Source of the DNA: an uncultured Bacteroidota bacterium
GTDB lineage: Bacteria > Bacteroidota > Bacteroidia > Bacteroidales > JAAUTT01
Reading direction: 5' to 3'
DNA length: 64,000 nucleotides
Assembly (NCBI GenBank): GCA_963846585.1
Contig: CAWJWO010000018.1
Coordinates: 427,759 to 491,758 of the forward strand
A model generated the notes under the pieces. The model did no database searches. It was not told the DNA's origin and was given only the letters and a program-made list of their open reading frames with translations. The first letter of the stretch is position 1, and the number at the start of each line of letters is the position of its first letter. Shown here piece after piece: positions 1,219-57,763 of the stretch. Made by a program: the position numbers and the translations under genes.

Positions 1219-1407
1219 ATGGAAACCTGTGAATATATAAATTTCGATTATAAATGTATAGGTGAAACAAGCCAAATAAAATCTATTCTTCGAAGTAAGC
1301 AATACATTATAAATGAATACGAACAAGCAAATTCAAAAAATATATGTTTATATTGCCATGGAACAATTGATGATATGGCTTTATTAATTCTCGTTATGCC
1401 AAATTAG
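1219..1407 (+). CDS. Hypothetical small Cys-rich protein (62 aa from the internal ATG); uncertain
   Basis: ORF METCEYINFDYKC...NICLYCHG with two Cys pairs (CX9C, CXXC). I recognise no homology. It lies in an AT-rich island between word arrays, and its TAG stop is the first TAG of an AGTGCTT-type array. Confidence 0.25.
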   Translation: METCEYINFDYKCIGETSQIKSILRSKQYIINEYEQANSKNICLYCHGTIDDMALLILVMPN

Positions 1408-1464
1408 TGCTTAGTAAATAGTGCATAGTGCCTAGCAAATAGATGTTAGTTGTCAGATGTTAGC
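1405..1464. repeat. Word array R2 (TAGTGCTTAGTAAATAGTGCATAGTGCCTAGC, then GTTAGTTGTCAGATGTTAGC)
   Basis: 7-nt AGTGCTT/AGTGCAT and GTTAGTT units read directly from the sequence. The array starts on the stop codon of the upstream small ORF. Confidence 0.85.
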
Positions 1465-7593: not shown

Positions 7594-8286
7594 GTGAGTA
7601 AAAGAAAATTGGAACGATTTGCAGAATTAGGTACGTTTTTAAATGTAATTCAACCCGATATAGAAGAAATTTTTAATAAAGACCATTATATTAAAGGCAA
7701 ATGGAATGAAAATTTGTTCAAAAATAACAGCCCGATTGTTCTTGAGCTTGGTTGTGGTAAAGGTGAATATACCACAGGAATGGCCGAAGTTTGCCCTGAT
7801 AAGAATTTTATTGGTGTAGACATTAAGGGAGCCAGAATCTGGATAGGTGCGAGGTATGCAGATCGGCACAATCTCACTAATTCCGCATTTTTAAGGATAC
7901 GCATCGACCATATTACATCCTTGTTTGCCCGGGATGAAGTATCTGAAATTTGGATTACTTTTCCTGATCCATATGAAACACCCGGAAGATCAAAAAAACG
8001 GCTTACATCATCTGTCTTTCTTTCATCTTATCAGCATTTTCTTAAAAACAATGGCCTGATCCATCTTAAAACTGACAATAAAATTCTGTATGATTATACT
8101 CTTAAACTTTGTATTCTTAATAAATTTGAAATATTATATAATACTGACAACTTGTACCATTCTTCTTTCGATAATAACTGGCTAAATATTAAAACACACT
8201 ATGAAACCAAATTCCTGCTTAATAACATTCCAATAAAATATCTCTGTTTTAAGCTTAATAATAATGTAATGATTACTGATTGCTGA
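7594..8286 (+). CDS. trmB: tRNA (guanine-N7)-methyltransferase
   Basis: 230 aa with a GTG start. Contains the typical TrmB N-terminus KRKLERFAE, the SAM site LELGCGKGEYT, and FPDPY. Confidence 0.9.
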   Translation: MSKRKLERFAELGTFLNVIQPDIEEIFNKDHYIKGKWNENLFKNNSPIVLELGCGKGEYTTGMAEVCPDKNFIGVDIKGARIWIGARYADRHNLTNSAFLRIRIDHITSLFARDEVSEIWITFPDPYETPGRSKKRLTSSVFLSSYQHFLKNNGLIHLKTDNKILYDYTLKLCILNKFEILYNTDNLYHSSFDNNWLNIKTHYETKFLLNNIPIKYLCFKLNNNVMITDC

Positions 8287-8302
8287 TTACAATTGGAAAA
8301 CA

Positions 8303-12373: not shown

Positions 12374-12375
12374 CT

Positions 12376-12663: not shown

Positions 12664-12678
12664 AATAAATATATAATT

Positions 12679-14232
12679 ATGAAAAATATATCTGTATTAT
12701 GGGTGGATGACGAAATTGATCTTCTTAAACCTCATATTCTGCTGTTACAGGATCGGGGCTACAAGGTAACTACTTGTAATAATGGAACTGACGCTTTAAT
12801 AGTTGTACAACAGGATGATTTTGACATTATACTTCTGGATGAACATATGGCAGGATTAAGTGGCCTTGAAACACTTAACAAGCTCAAATCAATTACACCA
12901 AATACTCCTGTTATTATGATTACAAAAAATGAAGAGGAAAACCTTATGGAAGATGCCATAGGTTCTAAAATTACAGATTACCTTATCAAACCTGTAAATC
13001 CGAAACAGATTCTATTGACTATCAAAAAAAATACAGAACAAAAAAAACTGGTTTCACTAAAAACATCAACAGTTTATCAATCGGAGTTTTTGAATATAAG
13101 TAATTTGATTAGTTACGCGAATACTTATGCCGACTGGGTTAATTTATATAAAATTTTAGTTTACTGGGAAATTGAACTCGAAAAATTGAATGATCCCGGA
13201 ATGTTTTCGATTCTCCAATCACAACACAGTGAAGCCAACCAGAAATTTGCTAAATTCATAAAGCAAAATTATTTAACCTGGTTCGACGGAAAAGGTGATA
13301 AACCAATAATGTCACAAAATTTGATGAAGGAAAATATTGTACCCTACATCAAACCGGGAGATAATGTCTTTCTGATAGTAATTGATAATCTTCGCCTGGA
13401 CCAATGGAAAATACTTAGCCCCGTTTTATGTGAATATTTCAGGATAGAGCGTGAAGAATTGTATTTCTCCATACTCCCAACGGTTACCCAGTATGCCCGC
13501 AATTCTATTTTTGCCGGTCTTATGCCATTATCAATCAGGAAAATATATCCCAACCTTTGGGATGATAATGACGAAGACGAAATGAATAACCAATATGAAG
13601 AGGACCTTATGAGGCTTCAGCTTTCACGGCTTGGCGTGAAATGCAGGTTTGCTTATGAAAAAATAAGCAATCAGAAAACAGGCAATAAAGTACTTGAAAA
13701 TATAAATAATTATTTTAATTATGATTTCAGCATATTGGTATATAATTTCGTGGATATCCTTTCTCATGCACGGACAAGCCAGGAAACCATCCGTGAACTA
13801 TCAACCGATGAAGCTGCCTACAGGGCTCTAACTCTTTCGTGGTTTCAACATTCATACCTGTTTGAATTGTTAAAAGTCCTCGCCGAAGAAAACTGTAAAG
13901 TAATCATAACTACCGATCATGGTTCCACTAAGGTCGGCAACCCTATCAAAATTATCGGCGATAGGGATACATCTGTAAACCTCCGTTATAAACAAGGAAA
14001 AAACCTGAAATATAACCCTAAAGAAGTGTTTGAGATTAAAAATCCGGAAGTTGCACACCTTCCACGTTTCAATATTAGTACCAGCTATATATTTTCAACG
14101 GGGGACGATTTTATGGCATACCCCAACAATTTTAATCATTATGCCAGTTATTACAAAAATACTTTTCAACATGGCGGAGTTTCGCTTGAGGAAATGATTA
14201 TTCCCTTTGTAGTGCTGAACCCTTTAAAATAG
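12679..14232 (+). CDS. porX: Response regulator with PglZ (alkaline-phosphatase-fold) output domain; T9SS regulator PorX
   Basis: Start moved to the ATG at 12679 (MKNISVLWVDDE). CheY receiver with DD...D and KP. The C-terminal PglZ motifs IVIDNLRLDQW and TTDHGS match the architecture of PorX. Confidence 0.8.
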   Translation: MKNISVLWVDDEIDLLKPHILLLQDRGYKVTTCNNGTDALIVVQQDDFDIILLDEHMAGLSGLETLNKLKSITPNTPVIMITKNEEENLMEDAIGSKITDYLIKPVNPKQILLTIKKNTEQKKLVSLKTSTVYQSEFLNISNLISYANTYADWVNLYKILVYWEIELEKLNDPGMFSILQSQHSEANQKFAKFIKQNYLTWFDGKGDKPIMSQNLMKENIVPYIKPGDNVFLIVIDNLRLDQWKILSPVLCEYFRIEREELYFSILPTVTQYARNSIFAGLMPLSIRKIYPNLWDDNDEDEMNNQYEEDLMRLQLSRLGVKCRFAYEKISNQKTGNKVLENINNYFNYDFSILVYNFVDILSHARTSQETIRELSTDEAAYRALTLSWFQHSYLFELLKVLAEENCKVIITTDHGSTKVGNPIKIIGDRDTSVNLRYKQGKNLKYNPKEVFEIKNPEVAHLPRFNISTSYIFSTGDDFMAYPNNFNHYASYYKNTFQHGGVSLEEMIIPFVVLNPLK

Positions 14233-14365
14233 TAGTAAGTCGTAAGTATTTATATCTTATTTGCAAGTTACAAGTTGCAGGTTGCAGATTTCAGGTCCTT
14301 TCACGTCCCATGTCCTTTTTTTCACGTCCATTGTCTTTGTTCCTGGCTCTTGGTTCCTGGCTCTA
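14230..14365. repeat. Composite word-array element R8
   Basis: TAGTAGTAAGTCGTAAG (includes the porX stop), GCAAGTTACAAGTTGCAGGTTGCAG, CACGTCC/CATGTCC units, CCTGGCTCTTGGTTCCTGGCTC. It ends 6 nt from the stop of the minus-strand DUF4197 gene. Confidence 0.9.
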
Positions 14366-15634: not shown

Positions 15635-16708
15635 ATGACACAATTTGCAGTACTACACATCGAGAAAAACAAGGGCAGTCAAATAGGCTTAAGTAAACAC
15701 ATCAGCCGGGAAACAATCCCTGCAAACGCTGATCCTTCAAGATTGTACCTTAATGAAACTCCTGTTGGTTCAAGGAATCAAATGCAAGACATAAAGGATC
15801 GGATAAAGGAAGGTGTGACTCAAAAAACTGCTATCAGGAAAGATGCAGTAAAAGCAATGCAAATAATTTTAACCGGCAGCCACGAACAGATGAAAGTTAT
15901 TGAAAGCAACGGACTTTTAAAAGACTGGATGAAACAAAATATATCCTGGCTTGATAAAACATTCGGAAAAGCTAACGTAGTGAATGTTACCTTACACATG
16001 GATGAATTAACCCCTCATGTTCATGCTACTGTTGTACCTATAACTTCCGACGGACGATTATGTGCAAAGGATTTCATGTCAAAGGAACACCTGAAAGGTT
16101 ATCAGACAAGTTACGCCAAAGCAATGGAACCTTTTGGCCTGAGCCGCGGTTTGGAAGGAAGCAGGGCTAAACATCAGGATGTAAAACAGTATTACGCTAA
16201 ACTGAATTACGAACTTCCAAAAATTAATAAGGAAATTGAGGAAAAACAAGAAACGGTAAAAGTACTTAAAAATGAAATCAGGGTTGATACAGCCTGGAAA
16301 ACCGTCACAGGTATTGTTGATGGATTTGCAAAGCGAAAAGAAAATAAGGACAAAGAAGATGAAATTGCTTCTTTAAAGAAAACAGCAGAACAACTTTCAA
16401 TTGATCTTAATAATTTACAGAAAGAGTTTGCTAAATCCAAATTAGAATTGAATAATACTAAAAAAGAATTTTCAACTTTACATGCTGAGATAGATAAATC
16501 AATGCAAGAAGGTTTAAAACAAGCCGTCCATACAATTAATCATTTGATATATAGCCAAATTGAAAAACCATTATTTCAATTTGAACTAATATACAAAAAG
16601 GAAAAGCCTGTAATAGAATTAAAACTTATTAAACCAACCAATCATGTGCCTACAGTGGAAGAAATAATGGGCAAAAATGTAAGAAAAAGAAATTTGGAGC
16701 GGTTGTAG
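15635..16708 (+). CDS. MobV-family (Mob_Pre) conjugative relaxase
   Basis: 357 aa. The N-terminal relaxase motifs align with MobM of pMV158: LHIEKNKG...SKHISRE, IRKDAV, and the metal-binding HMDELTPHVHATVVP (HxDE...PHxH). The C-terminal half is coiled-coil. The stop codon lies inside the first GGTTGTAGA repeat word. Confidence 0.85.
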   Translation: MTQFAVLHIEKNKGSQIGLSKHISRETIPANADPSRLYLNETPVGSRNQMQDIKDRIKEGVTQKTAIRKDAVKAMQIILTGSHEQMKVIESNGLLKDWMKQNISWLDKTFGKANVVNVTLHMDELTPHVHATVVPITSDGRLCAKDFMSKEHLKGYQTSYAKAMEPFGLSRGLEGSRAKHQDVKQYYAKLNYELPKINKEIEEKQETVKVLKNEIRVDTAWKTVTGIVDGFAKRKENKDKEDEIASLKKTAEQLSIDLNNLQKEFAKSKLELNNTKKEFSTLHAEIDKSMQEGLKQAVHTINHLIYSQIEKPLFQFELIYKKEKPVIELKLIKPTNHVPTVEEIMGKNVRKRNLERL

Positions 16709-16797
16709 AAAAGGTTGTAGAGGTTATAGAAAAAGGTTGTAGAGGTTGTAGAGGTTGTAGAGGTTGTAGAGGTTGTAGAGGTTGTAAAGGTTGTAGT
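16701..16797. repeat. Tandem 9-mer array R9 (GGTTGTAGA)
   Basis: GGTTGTAGA repeated about 10 times with A-rich interruptions; 5 perfect consecutive copies run from 16735. The TAG of the first unit terminates mob. Confidence 0.9.
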
Positions 16798-16844
16798 TCT
16801 TATAATACTGTTTAGTATCTGTCTTTAAAGTGCATTGTTTGGAT

Positions 16845-16946: not shown

Positions 16947-16954
16947 AACAAACA

Positions 16955-18084: not shown

Positions 18085-19047
18085 GTGGAACAAAAAGTAA
18101 CCTCAAAAAATTTCGCGTTAATTGGTGCTGCAGGCTTTGTTGCACCTCGCCACCTTAAAGCCATCAAAGAAACTAAGAACAATTTAGTAGCAGCACTTGA
18201 TAAATTCGACTGCGTTGGAATAATGGACAGCTATTTCCCCAATGCTGATTTTTTTGTTGAATTTGAACGATTCGACCGTCATATTGATAAAATTCAAAGG
18301 TTGGGTACCAAAGTTGATTACGTAAGTATTTGTTCACCAAATTATTTACATGATTCTCATATACGTTTTGCCCTTCGAAACCAGGCAGATGCAATTTGCG
18401 AAAAACCTCTTGTCCTTAATCCATGGAATATTGACGGACTTATTGAAATTGAAAAGGAAACAGGCAAAAAAGTTTATAATATACTGCAACTTAGGCTTCA
18501 TCAATCCATTATAGAATTAAAGGAACGGATTAAAAAAGGCCCTGCAGATAAAATCTACGATATTGATTTAACTTATATCACCAGCCGTGGAAATTGGTAT
18601 CATACTTCCTGGAAAGGCGAACTTTCCAAATCTGGTGGAGTTGCCACAAATATCGGAGTTCATTTTTTCGATATGCTATCCTGGATATTTGGGGATTTAA
18701 AACAAAATATTGTTCATATTATGAATCCTGATAAAGCATCTGGTTTTCTAATGCTTAAAAATGCCAGGGTAAGATGGTTCCTTAGCATTGATTTTAATGA
18801 CCTTCCTGCCACAATTCAGGCAAAAGGCCAAAGAACCTTTCGGTCAATTAAGGTTGACGGGAATGAATTTGAATTCAGCGAAGGCTTTACTGATCTTCAT
18901 ACCAAGACATATGAAGAAATCCTTGCAGGAAATGGCTTTGGATTAACTGAAGCAAAACCATCGATTGAAACTGTATTTGCTATACGTAAATCTGAACCGG
19001 TTGGGAAAATTGGCGATTATCATCCATTCTGCCAAAATATAATTTAG
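18085..19047 (+). CDS. Gfo/Idh/MocA-family oxidoreductase (WbpB-like UDP-sugar 3-dehydrogenase candidate)
   Basis: 320 aa with a GTG start. Rossmann N-terminus FALIGAAGFVAPRHLKAI and an EKP motif (CEKPLVLN). It sits in a nucleotide-sugar gene neighbourhood. Confidence 0.75.
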   Translation: MEQKVTSKNFALIGAAGFVAPRHLKAIKETKNNLVAALDKFDCVGIMDSYFPNADFFVEFERFDRHIDKIQRLGTKVDYVSICSPNYLHDSHIRFALRNQADAICEKPLVLNPWNIDGLIEIEKETGKKVYNILQLRLHQSIIELKERIKKGPADKIYDIDLTYITSRGNWYHTSWKGELSKSGGVATNIGVHFFDMLSWIFGDLKQNIVHIMNPDKASGFLMLKNARVRWFLSIDFNDLPATIQAKGQRTFRSIKVDGNEFEFSEGFTDLHTKTYEEILAGNGFGLTEAKPSIETVFAIRKSEPVGKIGDYHPFCQNII

Positions 19048-19175
19048 ATTTGAGGATTAAAGGATTTAGGCGTTTAGACTTTTAGGCTCTTAGGCTTTAG
19101 CTAATTAAAATATAATGAAACAAATAATTTATATTTCAACCTATTTCTCTGTGTCTCAGTATCTCAGTGTTTAAG
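19045..19175. repeat. Word array R10
   Basis: TTTAGGC/TTAGGCT units directly after the stop codon, then ATATTTCAACCTATTTCTCTGTGTCTCAGTATCTCAGTGTTTAAG. That second module is shared with 54965-54998, and in reverse complement with 50814-50860. Confidence 0.85.
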
Positions 19176-20512: not shown

Positions 20513-21559
20513 ATGGGTAAGAAAAAAATATTAGTTACCGGTGGAACAGGATATATCGGATCACACACTGCAGTAGAACTTATAAATGAAGGCTTTGATG
20601 TTATAATTGCAGATAACCTTTCCAATTCATCCACTTACTCACTTGATGGAGTGGAAAAAATAACAGGGATTCGTCCTGTATTTGAACAATTCGACCTGTG
20701 TGATAAAAAAAAGGCAAAGGATCTGTTTGTAAAATATCCTGAAATTGAGGCTATTATTCATTTTGCTGCTTCAAAAGCCGTAAATGAATCAGTTGAAAAA
20801 CCTTTATTATATTACCGCAATAATTTTGTTACGCTTATTAATTTACTTGAAATTGTTAACGAAAATCCTGAAATTAAATTTGTATTTTCTTCATCTTGTA
20901 CAGTTTATGGACAACCTGATTATTTACCAGTCACAGAAAATTCTCCTGTTAAAAAAGCAACCTCTCCATATGGCAATACAAAACAGGTTTCAGAAGAAAT
21001 AATTCAGGATATATGCGCTGCCAATCCTCAGGTTATGGCCATATCACTTAGGTATTTTAATCCTATAGGTGCACACAACTCTGCAATTATTGGTGAACTT
21101 CCTCTTGGTGTTCCGCAAAACCTGGTTCCATTTATTACTCAAACTGCCATTGGCCTTCGCGAACAGCTTAAAGTATTTGGCGACGATTATAATACTCCGG
21201 ATGGTTCATGTATCAGAGATTATATTCATGTGGTAGATCTTGCGAAAGCCCATGTAATTGCAATTAAACGACTTATAAATAAAAAAAACAAGGCTTGTTA
21301 TGAGGTTTTTAACCTTGGCACAGGACGCGGGGTTTCGGTACTTGAACTCATAGATGTTTTTCAAAAAACTACCGGGGTTAACCTTAATTATAAAATAGTG
21401 GGCCGACGAATGGGCGATATAGAAAAAGTTTGGGCCGATACCAAATCAGCCAATGAAGAACTAGGCTGGAAAGCTGAAAGCACACTCGAAGAAACCATTC
21501 TTTCGGCATGGAACTGGGAAAAGTACTACCGCAATATAGTAGTAAGTCGAAATCAGTAA
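20513..21559 (+). CDS. galE: UDP-glucose 4-epimerase
   Basis: 348 aa. Contains GGTGYIGSH, SSSCTVYG, and the catalytic YGNTK (YxxxK). The start codon abuts the previous stop. Confidence 0.9.
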   Translation: MGKKKILVTGGTGYIGSHTAVELINEGFDVIIADNLSNSSTYSLDGVEKITGIRPVFEQFDLCDKKKAKDLFVKYPEIEAIIHFAASKAVNESVEKPLLYYRNNFVTLINLLEIVNENPEIKFVFSSSCTVYGQPDYLPVTENSPVKKATSPYGNTKQVSEEIIQDICAANPQVMAISLRYFNPIGAHNSAIIGELPLGVPQNLVPFITQTAIGLREQLKVFGDDYNTPDGSCIRDYIHVVDLAKAHVIAIKRLINKKNKACYEVFNLGTGRGVSVLELIDVFQKTTGVNLNYKIVGRRMGDIEKVWADTKSANEELGWKAESTLEETILSAWNWEKYYRNIVVSRNQ

Positions 21560-22862: not shown

Positions 22863-22942
22863 AGAGCCAGGAACCAAAACTTATTAAAAACCGGGATTCT
22901 TGTTATGGCACCTAAGCACTATGCACTAAATACTAAGCACTA
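22863..22942. repeat. Word array R12
   Basis: AGAGCCAGGAACCAAAAC after the rfbB stop. CACCTAAGCACTATGCACTAAATACTAAGCACTA abuts glmS, and the glmS stop codon (TAG on the minus strand, 22940-22942) is the first TAG of the AGTGCTT array read on the minus strand. Confidence 0.85.
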
Positions 22943-24775
22943 TTCTACCGTTACCGACTTGGCAAGATTCCGGGGCTGATCAACATTACAACCACGCATT
23001 ACGGCAATATGATAAGACAAAAGCTGTAAGGGAACAACTGTTATTAATGGCGAAACAGAGAAATCCGTCACCGGCACTTCCAATACATAATCAGCCATTT
23101 TGCTGATCACCTTATCGCCTTCATGTACAACGGCAATTACAGTCCCGCTTCTTGCTTTTACTTCCTGGATATTACTTAATATCTTTTCGTAGGTCTGATC
23201 ATTTGTTGCAAGCACAACTACAGGCATTTTATTATCAATCAGAGCAATCGGGCCATGTTTCATTTCTGCGGCAGGATATCCTTCCGCATGGATATATGAT
23301 ATTTCCTTAAGCTTAAGAGCTCCTTCAAGGGCAACCGGAAATAAATAACCCCTTCCGAGGTAAAGGAAGTTGGTTGCATATTTAAATAAAGTAGCTATAA
23401 ACTTATACTTTTCATTATTAGCCAGCGTTTTCTCAATTTTATCAGGAACAGACATTAGTTCTGTAATTAAATGCTTACCCTGCTGCGGGGTTAAATTTCC
23501 TCTTTCCATACCCAGGGAAATTGCCATCATCATCAGAACAGTAACTTGTGCGGTAAAAGCTTTTGTAGATGCAACCCCAATTTCAGTACCGGCATGGGTA
23601 TATACACCTGCATGGGTTTCACGGGGAATGCTTGATCCCACTACATTACAAATACCCAATACCAATGCTCCTGAATCTTTAGCCTGTTTAATTGCAGCAA
23701 GGGTATCGGCTGTTTCGCCACTCTGGCTTATTGCAATTACCACATCATCCTTATAAATAATTGGATTACGGTAACGGAATTCCGAGGCATATTCAACTTC
23801 TACAGGTATACGGGCATATTCTTCCAGTAAGTATTCACCAACTAATCCGGCATGCCAGGAAGTACCGCAACCTATTATAATTATTCTCTTTGCCTCTAAA
23901 AGCCGGGGCATTACGTCGTATAGCCCGCCTAAATGTATTTCCGAATTGTCATTTTTAATCCTTCCTCTGAATGTATCTAATATTGACCTGGGTTGCTCAA
24001 ATATTTCCTTTAACATAAAATGGTCAAATCCATTTTTTTCAATTTCGGAAGTTTCCAGGCTCAACTTATGAATTATAGGTACTTGTTTAATATTCCGGAT
24101 AGTTTTGAGAATCAATTCATCCCTTTGAATAATTGCAACATCATCGTCGTTCAGATAAATAACATTGTTTGTATGTTCTACTATCGGAGTTGCATCTGAA
24201 GCAATAAAATATTCATCATTGCCGACACCAATCACAAGAGGGCTCCCTTTTCTTGCTGCAATGAGCTTATCCTTTTCTTCCCTGCATATAATTACAAGGC
24301 CATATGCCCCTACTACTTTATTTAATGCTAACCTGACTGCCATCTCTGCATTTACCTGGCCTTTCAAATAAATGTATTCTATCAGGTTAACAAGAATTTC
24401 AGTATCTGTTTCACTTTTAAATTTATATCCCCGTAATTCGAGTTTTTTCTTTAAAGTCGAATAGTTTTCTATAATCCCATTATGTATAAGTGTAAAATGC
24501 CCGTTCATTGAAGTATGAGGATGAGCATTTACATCATTTGGTTCACCATGAGTAGCCCATCGTGTATGTCCAATGCCAATGCACCCTGTTATATCCTTGC
24601 TTTTTATAAACTCTTCAAGATCACTAACTTTACCCTTTCTTTTATATGTTTTTACATCACCGTCAATAAGTGATATGCCGGCCGAATCGTACCCCCTGTA
24701 TTCAAGCCTTTTTAATCCATTGATTAAAATAGGGTAAGCTTGTTTTTGTCCAATATAACCCACTATTCCACACAT
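22940..24775 (-). CDS. glmS: Glutamine--fructose-6-phosphate aminotransferase
   Basis: 611 aa. N-terminal MCGIVGY (catalytic Cys2), two SIS domains, and the canonical C-terminus ...KSVTVE. Confidence 0.95.
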   Translation of the reverse strand: MCGIVGYIGQKQAYPILINGLKRLEYRGYDSAGISLIDGDVKTYKRKGKVSDLEEFIKSKDITGCIGIGHTRWATHGEPNDVNAHPHTSMNGHFTLIHNGIIENYSTLKKKLELRGYKFKSETDTEILVNLIEYIYLKGQVNAEMAVRLALNKVVGAYGLVIICREEKDKLIAARKGSPLVIGVGNDEYFIASDATPIVEHTNNVIYLNDDDVAIIQRDELILKTIRNIKQVPIIHKLSLETSEIEKNGFDHFMLKEIFEQPRSILDTFRGRIKNDNSEIHLGGLYDVMPRLLEAKRIIIIGCGTSWHAGLVGEYLLEEYARIPVEVEYASEFRYRNPIIYKDDVVIAISQSGETADTLAAIKQAKDSGALVLGICNVVGSSIPRETHAGVYTHAGTEIGVASTKAFTAQVTVLMMMAISLGMERGNLTPQQGKHLITELMSVPDKIEKTLANNEKYKFIATLFKYATNFLYLGRGYLFPVALEGALKLKEISYIHAEGYPAAEMKHGPIALIDNKMPVVVLATNDQTYEKILSNIQEVKARSGTVIAVVHEGDKVISKMADYVLEVPVTDFSVSPLITVVPLQLLSYHIAVMRGCNVDQPRNLAKSVTVE

Positions 24776-26680: not shown

Positions 26681-27043
26681 ATGACAATTGAAGTTTTAAA
26701 ATCAAAAATACACAGGGTAACCGTAACTGATGCAAACCTTAATTACATAGGCAGCGTTACCATAGATGAGGATCTGTTGGTTGCAGCCAATCTTATTGAA
26801 TTTGAAAAAGTTCAGGTAGTAAATATTAATAATGGCAAACGTTTGGAAACATACATAATAAAAGGCGAAAGAGGTTCAGGCGTGATTTGCCTTAACGGGC
26901 CTGCAGCAAGACAAGTTGCAGTAGGTGATATAGTCATAATTATGTCTTTTGCCAGCATGGATTTTGAAGAAGCTAAAAAGTTTAAACCTGTAATTGTGTA
27001 TCCGGATACTGCCACTAACTCGTTAATAGTGCATAGTGTTTAG
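26681..27043 (+). CDS. panD: Aspartate 1-decarboxylase
   Basis: 120 aa. Contains KIHRVTVT and the self-processing site YIGSVTID. The last ~6 codons (LIVHSV*) are encoded by ATAGTGCATAGTG-type repeat words. Confidence 0.9.
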
Positions 27044-27160
27044 TGCTTAGTGCTTAGTTGCTGGTTGCCAGTAAAAAGTGATGAGGTGATGAAGTAATGA
27101 AGTGATTATGTGATTAGGTTTATAAGATTTTCTATAAACCTTATAAACCTTATAAACTCA
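27027..27160. repeat. Composite word-array element R14
   Basis: AGTGCAT/AGTGCTT 7-mers (spanning the panD stop), GCTGGTTGC, GTGATGAR 8-mers, and TTATAAACC 9-mers. Followed immediately by 58-nt element copy 2. Confidence 0.9.
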
Positions 27161-27218
27161 TTTTCAAATTTGCACATTTCTTGCCCTGAGCGTAGTCGAA
27201 GGGTCAAATTTTCAAATT
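27161..27218 (+). repeat. 58-nt element, copy 2
   Basis: Identical over 58 nt to 3233-3290. It ends 11 nt before the ATG at 27230. Confidence 0.9.
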
Positions 27219-29268: not shown

Positions 29269-29457
29269 AATGGAACCAAGAACCAGGAACCAAGAGAAAA
29301 GAAGGCAGATGGCAGAAGATAAAAGATAAAAAAATTTAGAATTAAGAATCGAGATTTTAGATTTGTAATTTATGAATGCCTAAATCCGTAATTCACTAGC
29401 CACTAGTCCCTGGCCACTAGCCCCATTTCCTGGTTCTTGGTTCCTGGTTCCTGGTTC
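29269..29457. repeat. Composite palindromic word-array element R16 (homologous to R11)
   Basis: Left arm GGAACCAAGAACCAGGAACCAAGAG (29272-29296). Right arm TTCCTGGTTCTTGGTTCCTGGTTCCTGGTTC (29427-29457). The interior carries GGCAGAAGATAAAAGATAAAA / TTAGAATTAAGAATCGAGATTTTAGATTTG / CACTAGCCACTAGTCCCTGGCCACTAGCC. Confidence 0.9.
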
Positions 29458-29463
29458 TATTAA

Positions 29464-31158
29464 TTAAACTTACAATTTACGACAAACAACCTGCTACATA
29501 TCTCCGGCCTCGACATCGATTTCATACAAACTGGAATAAGGAAATCCATTTGCCGGAATCTGAATTTTTCAATTGCCAATGGTGAAACAGTTGGCATTTT
29601 AGGAGAATCCGGTTCGGGAAAATCAATAACTGCCCTTTCTGTATTAGGCCTTTTACCTCCTTCCCTTAAGGTTTCGGGAGGCAATATTTTATTTGCAAGG
29701 CCGGATGGTTCGATAATTAACCTTGCACAATCCACAGTTAAAACATTACAATCAGTCAGGGGAAAAGAAATTTCGATGGTTTTCCAGGAACCTATGACAT
29801 CGCTTAACCCTGTTTATTCATGCGGTGACCAGGTATTGGAAACTATTTTGCAACATAAGGTTTGTGAAGGGGATTTTTTTATCAGACAAATAAAAAACTC
29901 AAATAATATAAAAGAAGCCAGGGATAAGGTATTATCATTGTTTAATAAAGTCAGGCTTAAGGATCCTATAAAAATATATAATAGTTATCCGTATCAGCTT
30001 TCGGGAGGCCAGAGACAAAGAATAATGATCGCAATGGCTGTATCATGTAATCCCCGGTTGTTATTAGCTGATGAACCTACAACTGCACTGGATGTATCTG
30101 TACAACAATCAATTCTTGAGTTAATTGGCGAACTGCAGGCCGAAACAGGAATGAGCATTTTATTTATATCACACAATATTAATGTAGTATCAGAAATTGC
30201 AAAACGGGTTCTTATATTAAAGAATGGCGAGATTGTTGAACAAGGTGATATATCTCAGGTGATGTCAAATCCTGAACATTCTTACACCCGTGGATTAATT
30301 GCCTGCAGTAAATCAATAAGGGATAAAGGAAAGCGGTTGGTAACTATGGAAGAATTTATTAATCTGAATGATAAAGATAATAAGGATAATAAGAATGAAC
30401 AGAATATTTCTGAAAAATATTTAAATACAGATATCCAACAAAATGTACCTGTACTGAGAATAAAAAATCTGACAGTTAATTTTAAACATTCAACAGGACT
30501 ATTTGGAAAATCAAATACTAAAGAAATCCTTCACAATATAAATCTTGAAGTGTTCCAAAACGAAACCATCGGACTTGTTGGAGAATCAGGATCCGGTAAA
30601 ACAACCCTTGGACGGTCAATTATGAAACTGATCGGTTTCCAAAGAGGAGATATTTTCTATAATGGTATGCCAATCAACCTGCTCTCAGGAAAAGAATTGA
30701 AAAATTTTCACCGGAAAGTTCAGATTATATTCCAGGACCCATATTCATCATTAAATCCCAGGTTTACTATCGGGCAAATGATTACCGAACCCATGGTAGT
30801 TCACCGGTTATTTAAAAATAAATCTAAACGTAAAAAACGTGTCCTTGAGTTATTAAAACAGGTCAACCTTGATGAAAATTATTATTACCGTTACCCTCAT
30901 CAGTTATCGGGAGGACAAAGACAAAGAATTGGCATAGCACGGGCACTGGCAGTTGAACCTGAATTACTGATACTAGACGAATCAGTTTCTGCACTTGATG
31001 TATCAATTCAGGCTCAGGTACTTAACCTGCTTAATGATTTAAAGGGTTTATACAAGCTTACATATATTTTTATATCTCACGATTTGGATATAGTTAGATA
31101 CATGTCTGACCGGCTTGTGGAATTGAAAGAAGGCCGGATAGTTGCAAGTCGTAAGTAG
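29464..31158 (+). CDS. ABC transporter ATP-binding protein with two fused ATPase domains (DppD/DppF-YejF-like); 5' end unresolved
   Basis: The frame is open from the stop at 29461. First Walker A GESGSGKS at ~29605, signature LSGGQRQR twice, second Walker A GESGSGKTT. There is no in-frame ATG/GTG/TTG upstream of the first Walker A (only CTG at 29491), so the ORF-track ATG at 29776 is internal. The last codons and stop lie in a GTAAGTC word array. Confidence 0.8.
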   Translation, partial: LNLQFTTNNLLHISGLDIDFIQTGIRKSICRNLNFSIANGETVGILGESGSGKSITALSVLGLLPPSLKVSGGNILFARPDGSIINLAQSTVKTLQSVRGKEISMVFQEPMTSLNPVYSCGDQVLETILQHKVCEGDFFIRQIKNSNNIKEARDKVLSLFNKVRLKDPIKIYNSYPYQLSGGQRQRIMIAMAVSCNPRLLLADEPTTALDVSVQQSILELIGELQAETGMSILFISHNINVVSEIAKRVLILKNGEIVEQGDISQVMSNPEHSYTRGLIACSKSIRDKGKRLVTMEEFINLNDKDNKDNKNEQNISEKYLNTDIQQNVPVLRIKNLTVNFKHSTGLFGKSNTKEILHNINLEVFQNETIGLVGESGSGKTTLGRSIMKLIGFQRGDIFYNGMPINLLSGKELKNFHRKVQIIFQDPYSSLNPRFTIGQMITEPMVVHRLFKNKSKRKKRVLELLKQVNLDENYYYRYPHQLSGGQRQRIGIARALAVEPELLILDESVSALDVSIQAQVLNLLNDLKGLYKLTYIFISHDLDIVRYMSDRLVELKEGRIVASRK

Positions 31159-31463
31159 TAAGTCGTAAGCCGTAAGAAAAGAGAAGGCAGAAGACAGAAG
31201 GCAGAATGAGACGTGAGACATGAGACGTAGGAAGTGAGACGTGGGACGTGAGACATGGAAATAATTTGAAAATGTGTTAATTTGAAAATTTGTAAATGAA
31301 AGCAATTAAAATCTCAAATCACGAATCTTAAATCTCAAATCACCAAATCACCTTTTCCACGTCTTTCCATGTCTTTCCATGTCCTTCCATGTCCCCTTTG
31401 TATATTCCACATCTCACGTCTCACGTCTCATGTCCCTTTTCCTAATTCTTGGTTCTTGGTTCC
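31146..31463. repeat. Composite word-array element R17
   Basis: GTAAGTC 7-mers; GAAGGCAGAAGACAGAAGGCAGA; GAGACGTGAGACATGAGACGTAG... 7-mers; AATTTGAAAATGTG; ATCTCAAATCACGAATCTTAAATCTCAAATC; CCATGTCTTT 10-mers; CACGTCT 7-mers; TTCTTGGTTCTTGGTTCC. GACGTG/CACGTC arms are complementary. Confidence 0.9.
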
Positions 31464-31464
31464 A

Positions 31465-31522
31465 ATTTCAAATTAGCACATTTCTTGCCCTGAGCGTAGT
31501 CGAAGGGTCAAATTTTCAAATT
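31465..31522 (+). repeat. 58-nt element, copy 3
   Basis: Two mismatches relative to copies 1 and 2. Its last 2 nt overlap the stop codon of the minus-strand PBP1A gene. Confidence 0.9.
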
Positions 31523-33991: not shown

Positions 33992-36325
33992 ATGGCAGAA
34001 AATCTGGTAATAGTTGAATCACCGGCGAAGGCTTCAACCATAGAAAAATTTTTAGGCAAGGATTATATTGTCAAATCAAGCTATGGCCATATCAGGGATT
34101 TAGACAAAAAAAACCTGGGTATTGATGTAAAAAAGGAATATTCGCCCCAATATATTATCCCTGAGGATAAGCTTAAAGTTGTTGCTGAGCTTAAAAAACT
34201 GGCTAAAAATGCAACAACAGTTTGGTTGGCTTCTGATGAAGACCGTGAAGGTGAGGCTATTGCATGGCATTTATCCGAAGTTCTTGGCCTGAAACAGGAA
34301 AAAACCAAACGTATAGTTTTTAATGAAATTACAAAAAATGCTATTCTTAATGCGATAAAACAACCCAGGGACATTGATACTAACCTTGTAAATGCACAGC
34401 AGGCAAGACGAATTCTTGACCGTTTAGTCGGTTTTGAAATATCACCTGTTTTATGGAAAAAAGTCAGGCCATCATTGTCTGCAGGGAGGGTTCAGTCGGT
34501 TGCTGTCCGTTTGATTGTTGAAAGGGAGCGTGAAATAAATGCATTTAATAGCACTTCTTCCTTTAAGGTGGCCGGACTTTTTATTTTAGATGAAAAAAAG
34601 GCTAAATTATTTGCTGAACTGGAAAATAAAATTGAAACAAAGGAACTAACCCTGGAATTCCTTAAAAAATGTAAAGGTGCTATTTACACTGTATCGGGTA
34701 TAGTCACAAAACCTGCCAAAAAATCGGCGGCCCCTCCGTTTACTACTTCAACATTACAGCAGGAAGCCAGCCGAAAACTCAGTTTTTCGGTTGCCCAAAC
34801 TATGGCTATTGCGCAAAAACTTTATGAAGCCGGTAAAATAACCTATATGCGTACTGATTCTGTAAACTTGTCAGAAACAGCTATTAATGCAGCTAAAAAT
34901 GTTATAATAAAACTTTTTGGAGATAAATATTCCTCCCCACGCCAGTTTAAAACAAAAACAAAAGGCGCACAGGAAGCTCATGAAGCAATCCGGCCTACTT
35001 ACCTGGATTATTCTGAAATTGAAGGGTCCAATCAGGAGCAAAGGTTATACGAACTTATCTGGAAACGTACCGTTGCTTCACAAATGAGCGAGGCACTGCT
35101 CGAAAAAACAACAGTCGTTATAGATATATCCACAACTGATGAAAAATTTATTGCAACAGGCGAGATATTGAAATTTGATGGGTTCCTTAAAGTTTATATT
35201 GAATCAACTGATGAAGAATCTGAAGACAATAATGAAAGATTATTGCCTCCGCTTTCAATAGGCCAGGAAATAGCCCTCGATTATATAAAAGCTAACCAGC
35301 GATTTACTCATCACGCTCCACGTTACACCGAAGCCAGCCTGGTTAAAAAACTTGAAGAGTTAGGAATCGGGCGCCCTTCTACTTACGCCCCGACTATTTC
35401 AACCGTACAACAACGAGGTTATGTATTAAAAGAGGACCGGGAAGGAATAGAACGTGATAGTATAGAATTTATATTTAAAAACGGCATAATTTCAGACAGG
35501 ATATTAAAAGAAAATACAGGGGCAGAAAAAGCAAAATTATTCCCAAGTGACATAGGACTAATTGTCAATGATTTTCTCATTTCACATTTTAAGGAAATCC
35601 TCGATTATAATTTCACTGCAAATGTGGAAAAAGAATTTGATGAAATTGCCATGGGCAATGTGGTTTGGTATAAAATGATAGACAGGTTTTATATTCCATT
35701 TCATGATAAAGTTCAGGAAACAACCGAAAAATCGGAACGTAATGTTGGCGAACGCATTCTGGGTAAAGACCCTGTTTCCGGCAAACCGTTACTTGTAAGA
35801 ATAGGACGGTTCGGCCCTATGGCCCAGATAGGCGAATCTACTGATGAAGATAAACCGCGTTTTGCCGGATTATTAAAAGGTCAATCCATCGAAACCATTA
35901 CCTTTGACGAAGCACTGGCTTTATTTTCACTGCCAAGAACTATCGGCACTTTTGAAAACTCTGAAATTTTAGCCGGTGTCGGCCGTTTCGGGCCCTATCT
36001 GAAACATGATAACAAATTTTTCTCTATTAAACCATCGGAAGATAACCCTTTAACTATAAATCTGGACAGGGCTGTTGAAGTCATTGCCCAAAAACGAACT
36101 GAACAGGAAAATAAAGTATTAAAAACATTTAAAGAAGATCCTGACATAAAGGTTCTTAATGGACGTTTTGGGGCTTATATAAATTATAAAAAAAATAACT
36201 TTAAAATTCCAAAAACTAAAATTCCGGAAAACCTGACTTTTGATGAATGTAAAGATATTATAAGTAAAAGCCCTTCAAAAGAGAAGACTAAAAAGGCTGG
36301 GAGAAGAAAGAAGAATAGTGCTTAG
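33992..36325 (+). CDS. topA: DNA topoisomerase I
   Basis: 777 aa. TOPRIM LVIVESPAKASTIEKFLG and SDEDREGEAIAWH, active-site Tyr region ITYMRTDS, basic C-terminal tail. The final codons (NSA*) come from the AGTGCTTAG repeat word. Confidence 0.95.
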   Translation: MAENLVIVESPAKASTIEKFLGKDYIVKSSYGHIRDLDKKNLGIDVKKEYSPQYIIPEDKLKVVAELKKLAKNATTVWLASDEDREGEAIAWHLSEVLGLKQEKTKRIVFNEITKNAILNAIKQPRDIDTNLVNAQQARRILDRLVGFEISPVLWKKVRPSLSAGRVQSVAVRLIVEREREINAFNSTSSFKVAGLFILDEKKAKLFAELENKIETKELTLEFLKKCKGAIYTVSGIVTKPAKKSAAPPFTTSTLQQEASRKLSFSVAQTMAIAQKLYEAGKITYMRTDSVNLSETAINAAKNVIIKLFGDKYSSPRQFKTKTKGAQEAHEAIRPTYLDYSEIEGSNQEQRLYELIWKRTVASQMSEALLEKTTVVIDISTTDEKFIATGEILKFDGFLKVYIESTDEESEDNNERLLPPLSIGQEIALDYIKANQRFTHHAPRYTEASLVKKLEELGIGRPSTYAPTISTVQQRGYVLKEDREGIERDSIEFIFKNGIISDRILKENTGAEKAKLFPSDIGLIVNDFLISHFKEILDYNFTANVEKEFDEIAMGNVVWYKMIDRFYIPFHDKVQETTEKSERNVGERILGKDPVSGKPLLVRIGRFGPMAQIGESTDEDKPRFAGLLKGQSIETITFDEALALFSLPRTIGTFENSEILAGVGRFGPYLKHDNKFFSIKPSEDNPLTINLDRAVEVIAQKRTEQENKVLKTFKEDPDIKVLNGRFGAYINYKKNNFKIPKTKIPENLTFDECKDIISKSPSKEKTKKAGRRKKNSA

Positions 36326-36369
36326 TGCATAGTGCTTAGTGCTTAGTTGCTGGTTGTTGGTTGCTGGTA
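36315..36369. repeat. Word array R18
   Basis: ATAGTGCTTAGTGCATAGTGCTTAGTGCTTAG followed by TTGCTGGTTGTTGGTTGCTGG. The first TAG is the topA stop codon. Confidence 0.9.
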
Positions 36370-36410
36370 GATTTTGTTTATAAACCGATCTGCATTTTTT
36401 AAAATTAATT

Positions 36411-40066: not shown

Positions 40067-40186
40067 TGCCTTTAAGAAACTGTCAATTTCTGCGTTAGGC
40101 TCATCATCAAAATGCTCATTTACTATCAGTAAACTCCGCTTTTGATGATTTCGCAAGCCTTGAACTTGACAGTTTCTTTAATGTCA
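40066..40186 (+). repeat. Nested-hairpin repeat, copy D (subfamily 2) in the gldK-gldL gap
   Basis: Outer stem GTGCCTTTAAGAAACTGTCAA / TTGACAGTTTCTTTAATGTCAC. Inner stem TCATCATCAAAA / TTTTGATGA. Core GCTCATTTAC-TATCA-GTAAACTCC. The flanks GCGTTAGGCTC and TTCGCAAGCCT match the reverse complement of copy C. It starts on the last base of the gldK stop. Confidence 0.9.
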
Positions 40187-42844: not shown

Positions 42845-43720
42845 ATGCGTACCTTTTCTGTAGTTACAATTGCATTGATTATGATGTTCCTGTCATCCGG
42901 CAGTACTATTTTTGCCCAGGACACCAAAACTGAGGTTTATGAAAAAATACATATACCCCATAAAAAGCCAATTCCTTATCCATATACCAGGGAAGCCGAT
43001 GTGATGTGGTCCAAGACCATCTGGAGAATGTTAGATTTGAGGGAAAAAATGAACCTTCCTCTTTTCTATCCTTCCAAACCTATAGGAGAACGGATGAGCC
43101 TGGTTAGTCTTCTTTTTTATGGCATTGATAATGAAGGGTTACAAGCTTATGATCCCTATAAGGATGTAGATGAATTTAAAATACCAATGTCAAAAGAAGA
43201 TCTCGAAAAACAAATGGATAACGTTGCAAGAGATGTTCAGGTAGCGGATACTACAGGTCAAATGGTGACAAAACATGTTGCCGGTGAACGTAAAATGGAC
43301 CAAATCAAAAAAATTCTTATAAAAGAAAAATGGTTCTTCGATAAAAATTATTCAACCATGCAGGTTCGTATCCTGGGTCTGTGCCCTATACGGGTATATC
43401 CAAGGGAAATAAAAGGGGCTGTAAATCCGGATGAAGAAAATGCCGAAATGTTGCTTAAAGAAGTATGCTGGATTTATTACCCTGAAGCAAGAAATTTATT
43501 AGCTTCTCATGCCGTATATAATAAATTTAACGATGCACAGCAGGCTTCTTTTGACGATTTATTTGTTCAACGCCGTTTTGCCAGTTACATATATGCAGAA
43601 TCCAACGTATATGATAACAGAAGAGTTGAAGAATATACAACAGGATTGGAAACGCTTCTGGAAGCTGACCGCATCAAGGAATCGCTATCCAATATTGAAC
43701 AAGACCTGTGGGAATACTAG
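42845..43720 (+). CDS. gldN: Gliding motility / T9SS periplasmic ring protein GldN (PorN)
   Basis: 291 aa. Signal peptide and the typical GldN stretch READVMWSKTIWRMLDLREKMN. It is the last gene of the gldKLMN cluster. Confidence 0.9.
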   Translation: MRTFSVVTIALIMMFLSSGSTIFAQDTKTEVYEKIHIPHKKPIPYPYTREADVMWSKTIWRMLDLREKMNLPLFYPSKPIGERMSLVSLLFYGIDNEGLQAYDPYKDVDEFKIPMSKEDLEKQMDNVARDVQVADTTGQMVTKHVAGERKMDQIKKILIKEKWFFDKNYSTMQVRILGLCPIRVYPREIKGAVNPDEENAEMLLKEVCWIYYPEARNLLASHAVYNKFNDAQQASFDDLFVQRRFASYIYAESNVYDNRRVEEYTTGLETLLEADRIKESLSNIEQDLWEY

Positions 43721-43810
43721 AGAAGACAGAGGTCAGAATTCAGAAGTCAGAAGTCAGAAGACAGATAAAAGATAAAAGATGTAAAAATCAATAGTCAATT
43801 GTCAATATTC
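43721..43810. repeat. Word array R19
   Basis: AGAAGACAGAGG, CAGAAKT 7-mers x4, GATAAAA units, and CAATAGTCAATTGTCAATATTCAATA, directly after the gldN stop. Confidence 0.85.
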
Positions 43811-43813
43811 AAT

Positions 43814-43848
43814 AAAAAAGGTGTTTCTTAAGTGGAACACCTTTTTTT
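43814..43848 (+). terminator. Rho-independent terminator after gldN
   Basis: A-tract, stem AGGTGTTTC / GGAACACCT with a 6-nt loop, then a T7 run. Confidence 0.7.
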
Positions 43849-43874
43849 ATGAGTACAATACATAATATTACCTT

Positions 43875-50770: not shown

Positions 50771-50813
50771 TGGTGGGCGACTATATTAGAAGATAGCCAA
50801 TTATAAAATTAAA

Positions 50814-50965
50814 CACTGAGACACAGAGCCACAGAGAAATAAATTGAAATATATTTTTTTCTTTCCTCTTTCTTCTTTTATCTTTTATCTTTTATCTGTC
50901 GTCTGTCTTCTTTTTCACGTCCCTTTCACGTCCCATGTCTTGGCTCCTGGTTCCTGGTTCTTGAT
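50814..50965. repeat. Composite word-array element R22
   Basis: Ordered modules CACTGAGACACAGAGCCACAGAG / AAATAAATTGAAATATATTTTTTT / CTTTCCTCT / TTTTATC x3 / TGTCGTCTGTCTTC / CACGTCCCTTTCACGTCC / CTTGGCTCCTGGTTCCTGGTTC. It ends 7 nt from the wzc stop. Confidence 0.9.
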
Positions 50966-50972
50966 TCTATTT

Positions 50973-56926: not shown

Positions 56927-57763
56927 TTAACGGTTAACTTTCCTGGCTCCTGGTTCCTGGTTCCTGGCTCTGTTCAGATAATGGTACTTAGATTGAGGGT
57001 TTACCTCGCTTACAATTTTCTTTACATAAAACATTGAAATATTTATATGTCTTAAAAATTTGCTTTTTTGGTCATCCTGATCCAAAATAAATCCTTTAAT
57101 AATATTATTTTTCTTGTTTTTTATCCTTTTCGAAACCTGGTATAATTTTACTTTTGCCGATCTGTTATAATTGATTTTCTCAAAGTAATCAGCCGGATTA
57201 ATTTTATCCTTGTTATTTTTGATGGTATTGTATGCAGTAAACCCTATATTTTTAGACTGGTCGTCATTAAATATTTGTATCTGAATTGTTATTTCATATA
57301 ACCCGGTATCTTTTACAGCTATTTCAAAAGGAATTTTTTCAGCAAATCCTTTCCCCTCAAGTTTAATATTAATCTTCCCTTTATACAAATTTCCTGCCGA
57401 ATCCAGAATTAATGACCTTATGATATAAATATCCTGGCTCATCCGGTTTAACTCTGTTAATACTTCATCATATATTTCCTCATAACTTTTTGGTTTTATT
57501 TTAGAATAATACGATAAAGAACTATCGAACTGAACCTTAGTAATCCCGTTTTTATCAAAAATCTGCTTATAGAAATCATTATTATACTTACCGGCATTAT
57601 TTTGGTTTGAATGCATCATATAATATGCATCTGCAAGTTGAATGTCTATAAGTAAATCTTTAAGCTTTGCTGCCGGAATTATTTGGATTTTAGTTTTATG
57701 ATTGCACGACCACCCAAAACAAATTATAATGACAAAAACTATTATCCTTTTTACATTTCTCAT
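56927..57763 (-). CDS. Lipoprotein with N-terminal DUF4296-like domain
   Basis: 278 aa. Lipobox FGWSC. The stretch KLKDLLIDIQLADAYY...YKQIFDKNGITKVQFDSSLSYY is DUF4296-like. The start overlaps the sprF-like stop (ATGA). The last ~10 codons (NQEPGARKVNR*) are encoded by a CCTGGTT word array. Confidence 0.65.
   Translation of the reverse strand: MRNVKRIIVFVIIICFGWSCNHKTKIQIIPAAKLKDLLIDIQLADAYYMMHSNQNNAGKYNNDFYKQIFDKNGITKVQFDSSLSYYSKIKPKSYEEIYDEVLTELNRMSQDIYIIRSLILDSAGNLYKGKINIKLEGKGFAEKIPFEIAVKDTGLYEITIQIQIFNDDQSKNIGFTAYNTIKNNKDKINPADYFEKINYNRSAKVKLYQVSKRIKNKKNNIIKGFILDQDDQKSKFLRHINISMFYVKKIVSEVNPQSKYHYLNRARNQEPGARKVNR
56940..56970. repeat. Word array R24 (TTCCTGGCTCCTGGTTCCTGGTTCCTGGCTC)
   Basis: CCTGGTT/CCTGGCT 7-mers lying inside the 3' end of the lipoprotein ORF. 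Confidence 0.85.

Follow-up and report, generated by a model that had tools for sequence, protein, structure and literature searches.

Tandem arrays of 7–10-nt words crowd the gene spacers of a 64,000-nt stretch of an uncultured Bacteroidales genome (hereafter the window; 35% G+C), and several of them reach into gene 3′ ends, where they provide the stop codon and, at some genes, the last few residues. The original prediction, made from the letters of this DNA, was that such arrays donate stops and C-terminal residues to genes, and comparison of TopA, PanD, TrmB and an ABC ATPase with their orthologues agreed with it. The alignments show native C-termini kept to within 0–5 residues, with no wholesale replacement of tails. 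The best explanation, to which we give a rough probability of 60%, is a combination of close packing of arrays against genes, the frame arithmetic of a period-7 repeat and drift of the junction between array and gene. The overlap with stop codons is a Bacteroidales instance of behaviour already documented elsewhere; less ordinary and more notable is the modular, polar, hairpin-forming architecture of the spacers themselves.

Stop codons and C-terminal codons within tandem arrays

Tandem Repeats Finder (TRF) returned 118 short-tandem-repeat rows in the window, which merge into 65 arrays of period 7–10, or 1.02 per kb. This density is about four times that of the syntenic relative L114 and ranks top among 82 related loci. 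Repeats of the heptameric long simple-sequence (LSSR/STRR) type, with head-to-tail units of 7 nt (range 5–11 nt) in at least three copies, are represented by TAGTGCT arrays of 4.6, 4.6 and 4.4 units together with many other arrays of period 7–10, and Rfam gave zero family matches anywhere in the window. The gene names TopA, PanD, GlmS, PorX, ABC ATPase, GalE-like epimerase, MobV relaxase, DUF4296 protein and GldN are supported by Pfam.

The stops of topA, panD, glmS and the small open reading frame (ORF) at 1162–1407 lie inside TAGTGCT-type arrays, as predicted, and both the sequence and TRF place them in units 2, 3, 1 and 1, respectively. The small ORF, which starts with TTG and matches no Pfam family, is perhaps not a real gene. 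The claim that the last codons are also repeat-encoded holds for topA, whose final codons AAT AGT GCT and stop TAG overlap the array, and for the I-V-H-S-V of panD (ending TTA ATA GTG CAT AGT GTT TAG, with the Pfam domain closing at about residue 112), but not for the panD leucine that precedes them. The glmS gene (22940–24775, minus strand) ends GTA GAA TAG and receives zero residues from its array. Several further junctions were described correctly: the PorX stop is followed directly by TAGTAAGTCGTAAGT, unit 2 of an AAGTCGT array contains the ABC-ATPase stop, the galE tail (21533–21550; ATAGTAGTAAGTCGAAAT) is similar to the word at these two genes, and the stop of the mob gene is supplied by the first GGTTGTAGA unit (16706–16708). 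For the DUF4296 lipoprotein, CCTGGTT words had been said to encode the last ~10 residues; part of the tail (...RARNQEPGAR) is indeed array-encoded, and the share of the array is an insertion of ~8 residues relative to the L205 orthologue, present in degenerate form in a 77% orthologue. TrmB, GldN and an oxidoreductase are three additional cases, and the coordinates of all junctions are collected in the table below.

Across the six period-7 junctions the in-frame stop falls in units 1, 1, 2, 2, 3 and 3, a 2:2:2 spread as expected from an arbitrary relation between array and frame. Where the stop is TAA or TGA, the gap to the first array unit is variable and measures 1–13 nt.

Table 1. Positions of array–gene junctions and spacer features in the window.
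Feature	Position	Strand	Basis and remarks
topA coding sequence	33992..36325	+	Pfam Toprim, Topoisom_bac, Toprim_C_rpt; ends AAG AAT AGT GCT TAG
TAGTGCT x4.6 array at topA	36316..36347	+	TRF; unit 2 TAG is the topA stop (36323-36325)
GTTGCTG/TGGTTGY x3.3 array, second past topA	36346..36368	+	TRF; next in the fixed word order
TAGTGCT x4.6 array at panD (coding sequence 26681-27043)	27027..27058	+	TRF; unit 3 TAG is the stop (27041-27043)
TAGTGCT-type x4.4 array at glmS	22912..22942	-	TRF; unit 1 TAG (22940-22942) is the stop, at the native position
TAGTGCW array at ORF 1162-1407	1404..1450	+	TRF; opens on the TAG stop (1405-1407), unit 1
PorX stop followed by TAGTAAGTCGTAAGT	14230..14247	+	Pfam Response_reg and PglZ; stop TAG 14230-14232
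AAGTCGT x4.4 array at the ABC ATPase	31146..31176	+	TRF; variant unit 2 (AAGTAGT) contains the stop (31156-31158)
GGTTGTAGA 9-nt array at the MobV relaxase	16694..16796	+	TRF, Pfam; first unit contains the stop
AGAGCCA/GGAACCA x4.3 array at the DUF4296 protein	56941..56970	-	TRF; translated within the tail as ARNQEPGA
TGATTAC x3 array at TrmB	8270..8290	+	TRF; third TGA (8284-8286), in frame, is the stop
AGAAGTC (43721-43765) and AGATAAA arrays at GldN	43721..43780	+	First base lies right past the native stop TAG (43718-43720)
Degenerate TTTAGGCT 8-mer array at an oxidoreductase	19045..19098	+	By eye (TRF only 19065-19098); first TTTAG contains the stop TAG (19045-19047)
Complete palindromic spacer: RGARCCA arrays, AGAAGRC arrays, centre, CACTAGC arrays, TGGYTCY arrays	29269..29459	.	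RNA fold -63 kcal/mol, z = -6.5
Long imperfect palindromic spacers with ordered arrays of 7-10-nt words	673-1100, 2131-2333, 12374-12668, 29269-29459, 31159-31520, 50771-50972		
Tentative terminator-like hairpin followed by ATTTTTT	36367..36400	+	Fold; missed by the consensus scan; between the topA arrays and the next gene start (36411)

The relatives compared include L114, which is syntenic (TopA 85% identical) and lacks most of the arrays, and L116, a relative of 89% identity (GCA_964513035.1). The original prediction had offered, as one of two readings, that the arrays replaced the native 3′ ends of genes. Alignment of the C-termini revealed altered tails or stops in topA, panD, TrmB and the ABC ATPase, but no wholesale truncation or replacement, and the replacement reading fails beyond 1–5 codons. 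GlmS ends in ...DQPRNLAKSVTVE, identical to E. coli and to 19 relatives (whose stops are 11 TAA and 8 TAG), and GldN has the tail DLWEY-TAG in both the window and L114. Seven other proteins, namely RadA, PanC, a PBP, a CTP-transferase, a Wzz/ParA-like protein, a histidine kinase and a radical-SAM protein, have tails equal in length to those of array-free relatives, with substitutions only in the last 1–3 residues.

The altered tails differ from their orthologues in small steps. TopA ends ...RRKKNSA-TAG in the window and in L116 and ...KKKS, ...KKKA or ...KRKRKA in orthologues, a gain of about three residues, and its stop codon is TGA in L114 versus the array TAG in the window; its nearest named matches carry the annotation of Bacteroidales or Bacteroidota metagenome-assembled genomes (MAGs), and a protein of 100% identity is encoded on an ENA contig. 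A 341-kb contig (ENA ERZ25039501, contig_55763) represents the same genome as the window. L116 has the identical AAT AGT GCT TAG junction with one TAGTGCT unit instead of 4.6, which fits inheritance of the junction with gain or loss of units rather than repeated insertion. PanD ends ...TNSLIVHSV* against ...TNKLL* in the orthologue, four residues longer. Its gene reads ...ACT AAT AAA TTA TTA TAG in L114 and ...ACT AAC TCG TTA A/TAG TGC A/TAG TGT T/TAG in the window (slashes mark the array TAGs); the first array TAG aligns with the native TAG, but a 2-nt difference shifts it out of frame, and the frame runs on to the third TAG. The tail of the ABC ATPase equals that of relatives in length to within one residue (their stops being TGA or TAG), with TGA in L114 and an array TAG here, and the variant array unit AGTAGTA matches the native tail AGT AGT AGA of L116. 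TrmB ends ...VMITDC* against ...VMIIESEHTYSK* and similar tails, being 3–8 residues shorter than most orthologues, and its word TGATTAC matches native coding sequence (...ATG ATT A...; one orthologue has ...NVMIIES). The plasmid relatives of the Mob protein are at most 37% identical.

A Wzz/GNVR plus ParA-like tyrosine-kinase-type protein of 791 residues is encoded by a single ORF (50973–53348), which corresponds in L205 (16347–18722) to two genes of 481 and 300 residues.

Array placement and palindromic spacer modules

Placement was analysed for the 28 gene 3′ ends whose downstream spacer contains an array; under the null, the first array could start at any position between 21 nt before the end of the gene and the far limit of the spacer. 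Fourteen of the 28 starts lie within 10 nt of the first base of the stop, where the null mean is 6.2 (p = 0.0009), and the proximity of arrays to stops is real and beyond chance. Starts at or before +3 (8/28; null mean 4.9, p = 0.09) and starts from −1 to +3 (3/28; null mean 1.0, p = 0.07) are less distinct from the null. The expected peak in stop-to-array distance thus exists as an excess within 10 nt, but not as a significant excess exactly on the stop.

The arrays are strictly polar. All 32 arrays of five word families point away from the nearest gene boundary, 27 of them at 3′ ends and five at 5′ ends. Words follow each other outward from the gene in fixed series: one runs TAGTGCT, TAGTTGC/TGGTTGC, AAGTGATG, GGTTTATAA and then a core; another runs (T)AGAACCA, GGACGTG, AGAAGRC and AGATAAA. 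The order TAGTGCT then TAGTTGC/TGGTTGC found after topA is also found after panD, and the words TAGTGCT, RGARCCA and TAGTAAGTCGTAAG recur at many unrelated gene ends with their order fixed. Furthermore, RGARCCA arrays often open with a special TAGARCC unit, which is mirrored as GGYTCTA at the far end. Relative to dinucleotide shuffles, the folding of three whole spacers into single long hairpins reaches z = −6.5, −3.8 and −5.4. Uniform outward polarity and palindromic spacers together mean that the arrays at stop codons are the outermost arms of such modules.

The hairpin potential belongs to the modules and not to the short arrays. TAGTGCT arrays alone fold at −18 kcal/mol in the sense and −5 kcal/mol in the antisense direction, and self-complementarity of AGUGCU through G-U pairs was considered as a selected RNA structure and rejected: dinucleotide shuffles fold just as well (z −0.1 to −1.1), so there is no specifically selected structure in the short arrays alone. 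The arrays do not qualify as intrinsic terminators either, as they have no T-runs; a scan with a terminator consensus found none in the spacers from 22 to 38 kb of the window. In five of the closest relatives, glmS is followed right downstream by a classic hairpin plus T-run terminator. The GldN gene of the window has its own canonical hairpin with T-run at ~43815–43850, separate from and downstream of the arrays.

Other repeated elements occur in the window. A conserved 18-nt core, CCTTCGACTWCGCTCAGG, occurs four times (0.01 expected) at 727–744, 3257–3274, 27185–27202 and 31489–31506, and at least three of the four copies sit inside a longer common element ...TTTGAAAATTTGACCCTTCGACTACGCTCAGGGCAAGAAATGTGC... 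that has no Rfam match. A MITE-like inverted-repeat element (for miniature inverted-repeat transposable element) with 42-nt arms (TTTAAGAAACTGTCAA...) lies at 40071–40181, just past the GldK stop, and is absent in L114. A second one, at 16839–16952, has in common with it an internal TCATTTACT..AGTAAACTCC hairpin. The GGTTGTAGA 9-mer directly past the MobV relaxase gene comprises nine copies with an 18-nt super-period in a chromosomal context; this array may resemble iterons or belong to a mobilisable element.

Comparison with other genomes and known repeat families

Overlap of arrays with stop codons extends well beyond the window. Among 82 loci of Bacteroidota relatives (831 gene ends), 112 arrays begin between −30 and +150 nt from a stop; 32 of these contain the stop and 19 begin 3–10 nt past it, with stop-bearing words such as TGAACAG, TAACAAT and TGATTAACGA. 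TAGTGCT arrays were found in at least 113 stretches from many phyla, and the source genome is not among the 113 loci of this pattern scan. In 56 of the 113 a gene ends on the TAG-oriented flank, and in 19 of the 56 the stop lies inside the array, 18 times as TAG. Six of ten tested array-stopped ORFs have housekeeping or other clear Pfam domains (PBP2, RecJ, a UvrD-like helicase, HisRS, GalT and TPR/cytochrome), and the 19 junctions repeatedly show array-encoded tails ending in ...SA* or ...VLSA*. Carriers range over MAGs and isolates, including Vibrio, Shewanella, Hymenobacter, Planctomycetota, Acidobacteriota, the candidate phyla radiation and an archaeon, and the arrays are often followed by an inverted AGCACTA array. 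At three loci of one Thermoguttaceae MAG a conserved loop lies between the arrays, which looks like a dispersed hairpin family.

Control words clarify this distribution. In viral contigs, 8 of 11 occurrences of the stop-free word TTGCAGT are within ORFs; stop-bearing control words lie mostly at ORF ends (9 of 16 TAGTCGT arrays contain the stop of a flanking ORF), and the difference supports the account based on frame arithmetic. TAGTGCT as a special universal element was rejected: it occurs 10 times in the viral contigs against 21, 17, 19 and 12 for controls of the same composition. As the controls are equally or more frequent, the wide spread of TAGTGCT reflects the general abundance of heptamer arrays. 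A rule that TAGTGCT arrays start with (T)TAG across phyla was likewise judged unreliable. In 107 genome loci 57% of them do so against 29% expected, but control words gave mixed phases and the recovery of short arrays is biased by the phase of the pattern searched for.

Several known repeat families share features with the arrays of the window. The short tandemly repeated repetitive (STRR) heptamers of cyanobacteria, reportedly described by Mazel and colleagues in 1990, are similar in that several different tandem heptamers, often contiguous, occupy intergenic regions at many loci, whereas phylum and words are different. To our knowledge, the STRR heptamers are not described as overlapping stop codons or as having a palindromic order of modules. 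MITEs such as Correia, ERIC and Nezha have long inverted arms and intergenic locations, and can overlap ORF ends and supply stops upon insertion at TA. The window modules likewise have terminal inverted repeats, in the form of long-hairpin spacers (z −3.8 to −6.5) with mirrored outer arrays; however, a target-site duplication, a fixed length and a consensus copy are not demonstrable for them, and copies vary in unit number and word content. Phase-variable contingency simple sequence repeats, which are hypervariable in unit number among close strains and switch expression from promoters or 5′ coding regions, do not match, as the arrays are 3′-terminal and invariant in four near-identical assemblies, which differ by 2 mismatches in 6–8 kb.

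Rehm et al. 2015 (PMC4692102) described the G-rich heptamers GGGAATC and GGGGAYT in intergenic regions of Xanthomonas and Nostoc, typically in about four units, located within 50 bp of or overlapping a stop on the sense strand and just upstream of ORFs on the antisense strand. Unit length, copy number, intergenic location and outward polarity are the same in the window, where all 32 arrays of the five word families are directed outward and half of the gene ends analysed have an array start within 10 nt of the stop. In contrast, the Xanthomonas/Nostoc heptamers hold no stop triplet and were studied for their formation of G-quadruplexes, whereas the words of the window are AT-rich, of many kinds, ordered into long-hairpin modules and in several cases stop-bearing. 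MacGregor 2015 (PMC4679880) reported direct repeats of TAACTGA in Beggiatoaceae, cyanobacteria and some Bacteroidetes. This heptamer has stops in all three frames, its repeats are said to be necessarily at ORF ends, and 13 sets overlap an upstream stop codon (PMC4679880). The closing of all three frames, the location at ORF ends and the overlap with stops are common to both systems, but TAACTGA is a single word lying mostly just upstream of start codons, and the window arrays are mostly 3′-proximal, palindromic and of many words. Finally, Di Nocera et al. 2013 (PMC3733652) found that the GTAG termini of repetitive extragenic palindromic (REP) sequences often provide the TAG stop of flanking ORFs. 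Like REPs and bacterial interspersed mosaic elements, the modules of the window are intergenic, hairpin-forming, mostly downstream of genes and often with G-T pairs, and they supply the TAG stops of topA, panD, the ABC ATPase and Mob; this is a common behaviour and not proof of REP membership. REPs are single imperfect palindromes of 20–40 bp with an unpaired GTAG or CGTC tag and a link to REP-associated tyrosine transposases (RAYT, TnpA-REP), whereas tandem heptamers make up the arms of the window modules, GTAG is confined to the 9-mer GGTTGTAGA, and no RAYT gene is present among the ORFs of the window.

Origin of the arrays and its implications

Close packing, frame arithmetic and junction drift would act together as follows. 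The arrays form the arms, on the side facing the gene, of long and imperfect intergenic palindromes built from tandem 7–10-nt words; these modules occupy most array-bearing spacers from 0–13 nt past the stop to ~15–40 nt before the next start. The outermost words are stop-bearing and of period 7 (TAGTGCT, TAGTTGT, TAAGTCG, TGATTAC). As 7 equals 1 modulo 3, three successive units place a stop in every frame, and any ORF that enters the array is closed within 21 nt. When an array is flush with a gene, the native stop may simply be unit 1, and nothing is donated (glmS); alternatively, an indel at the junction or loss of the native stop would carry the frame on to the stop in unit 2 (topA ...NSA, ABC ATPase) or in unit 3 (panD ...IVHSV, TrmB ...TDC). 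Words without an in-frame stop can be read through, as in the DUF4296 gene, where RGARCCA units add about eight residues. Flush packing itself would result from the birth or retention of arrays beside gene ends together with loss of neutral spacer, and changes at the junction would be tolerated because a stop is always nearby.

Several observations weigh against this account. All five TAGTGCT arrays in the window start in TAG phase, and the first TAG of the glmS and panD arrays is base-exact with the native stop; packing alone predicts neither. The TAGARCC start units mirrored as GGYTCTA look like a defined element terminus. The word order common to different loci and to L116 implies that modules are copied. 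The identity of arrays in the four assemblies means that any ongoing slippage is slow. An array start exactly on the stop is not significant by itself in the window (p = 0.07–0.09), because the spacers are nearly saturated with arrays, and the evidence on placement covers 64 kb of the genome.

In a rival explanation, the palindromic modules would be non-autonomous, MITE- or REP-like mobile elements inserting at the TA or TAG of stop codons, where duplication of TA plus the first base of the element would regenerate the stop. Precise insertion into stops was the other reading of the original prediction, and we regard it as unlikely. The TAG-first phase of the window arrays, the mirrored terminal units, the shared word order, the folding of spacers as long inverted repeats, the (T)TAG excess across genomes and the precedent of GTAG REP termini speak for it, and the TAG...CTA ends of modules are compatible with a TA duplication. 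However, the gap from TAA or TGA stops to the first unit varies, the (T)TAG excess is biased as described above, and transposase genes are as absent as RAYT genes among the ORFs of the window. No target-site duplication can be defined and comparison with L114 and L116 found no clean-bordered pair of empty and filled sites, as the orthologous spacers are unalignable and their borders undefinable. The change of unit number at the same topA junction in L116 also counts against it, as does the frequency of TAGTGCT in viral contigs, which is no higher than that of its controls. The TAG-first boundaries, the coincidence with native stops and the TAGARCC units nevertheless keep an origin by targeting, or by anchoring on the stop codon, alive at similarly low or slightly lower odds. 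A more far-reaching form of this idea, in which a dedicated polar process installs or nucleates modules at the TA(G) of stop codons and the modules have taken over the role of intrinsic terminators in this lineage, seems rather unlikely. Such a process could be a mobile palindromic element with a TA/TAG target or slippage anchored on the stop codon; if real, it would explain the TAG-first boundaries, the base-exact coincidence at glmS and panD, the word order and the missing canonical terminators.

Arrays might instead have been born in place, by slippage of a heptamer that included the stop or the last codons. The match of the TrmB and ABC-ATPase words to native coding sequence agrees with local birth, as does the 2007 proposal of Mrazek that heptamers favour polymerase slippage (as cited in PMC4679880). 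Independent seeding, however, does not predict the same words at many unrelated gene ends in fixed order, and we regard local birth as very unlikely. Selection for a function is slightly less probable still. Stop-rich arrays could have been retained to act as backstops of translation or, through RNA structure close to the stop, in place of intrinsic terminators, in line with the strong spacer hairpins, the 22–38 kb region free of canonical terminators opposite relatives with a glmS terminator, and the effect on translation of REPs that lie within 15 nt of a stop in E. coli, as cited in PMC12306157. Arrays that begin 3–20 nt past stops show no excess of sense-strand stop triplets, however (sense-only versus antisense-only: 2 vs 1 in the window, 2 vs 10 in relatives); selection for a translational backstop was rejected, there being no sign of it. 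The shuffle-like folding of TAGTGCT arrays and the separate terminator of GldN also disagree with a selected function. That arrays overwrote and truncated native 3′ ends on a large scale, finally, has next to no chance: the short TrmB tail and the topA and ABC-ATPase stop codons that differ from L114 are in its favour, but the other compared genes retain native C-termini, changes amount to at most five residues, and the orthologue alignments largely refute it.

With packing, frame arithmetic and drift as the preferred account, the arrays bear on annotation and on spacer evolution. In array-rich genomes, the last 1–5 residues and the stop of many proteins are set by fast-evolving non-coding repeats, and tails of the ...SA* and ...VLSA* type from TAGTGCT arrays are present in real housekeeping genes of several phyla. 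A period-7 stop-bearing repeat illustrates a junction between gene and spacer that tolerates frameshifts. With about one array per kb, strict outward polarity and long hairpins in a region free of canonical terminators, the spacer architecture deserves a study of its own.

Some additional features of the window were noted. In two short-read assemblies of the same genome the contig ends 8 nt past the panD stop, inside the TAGTGCT array, and such arrays thus fragment metagenome assemblies. A small overlapping gene pair at 1572–2131, the second gene of which has a MazF/PemK-like motif (...RPCVVISPNEMNHFLE), is probably a toxin–antitoxin pair, to judge from the motif. At the other end, 62905–64000 consists of tandem 243-bp (81-aa) repeats in at least 4.5 copies of 86% identity, which reach the window edge at 64000 and are located at the 5′ end of, and upstream from, a 1656-aa ORF (58677–63647).

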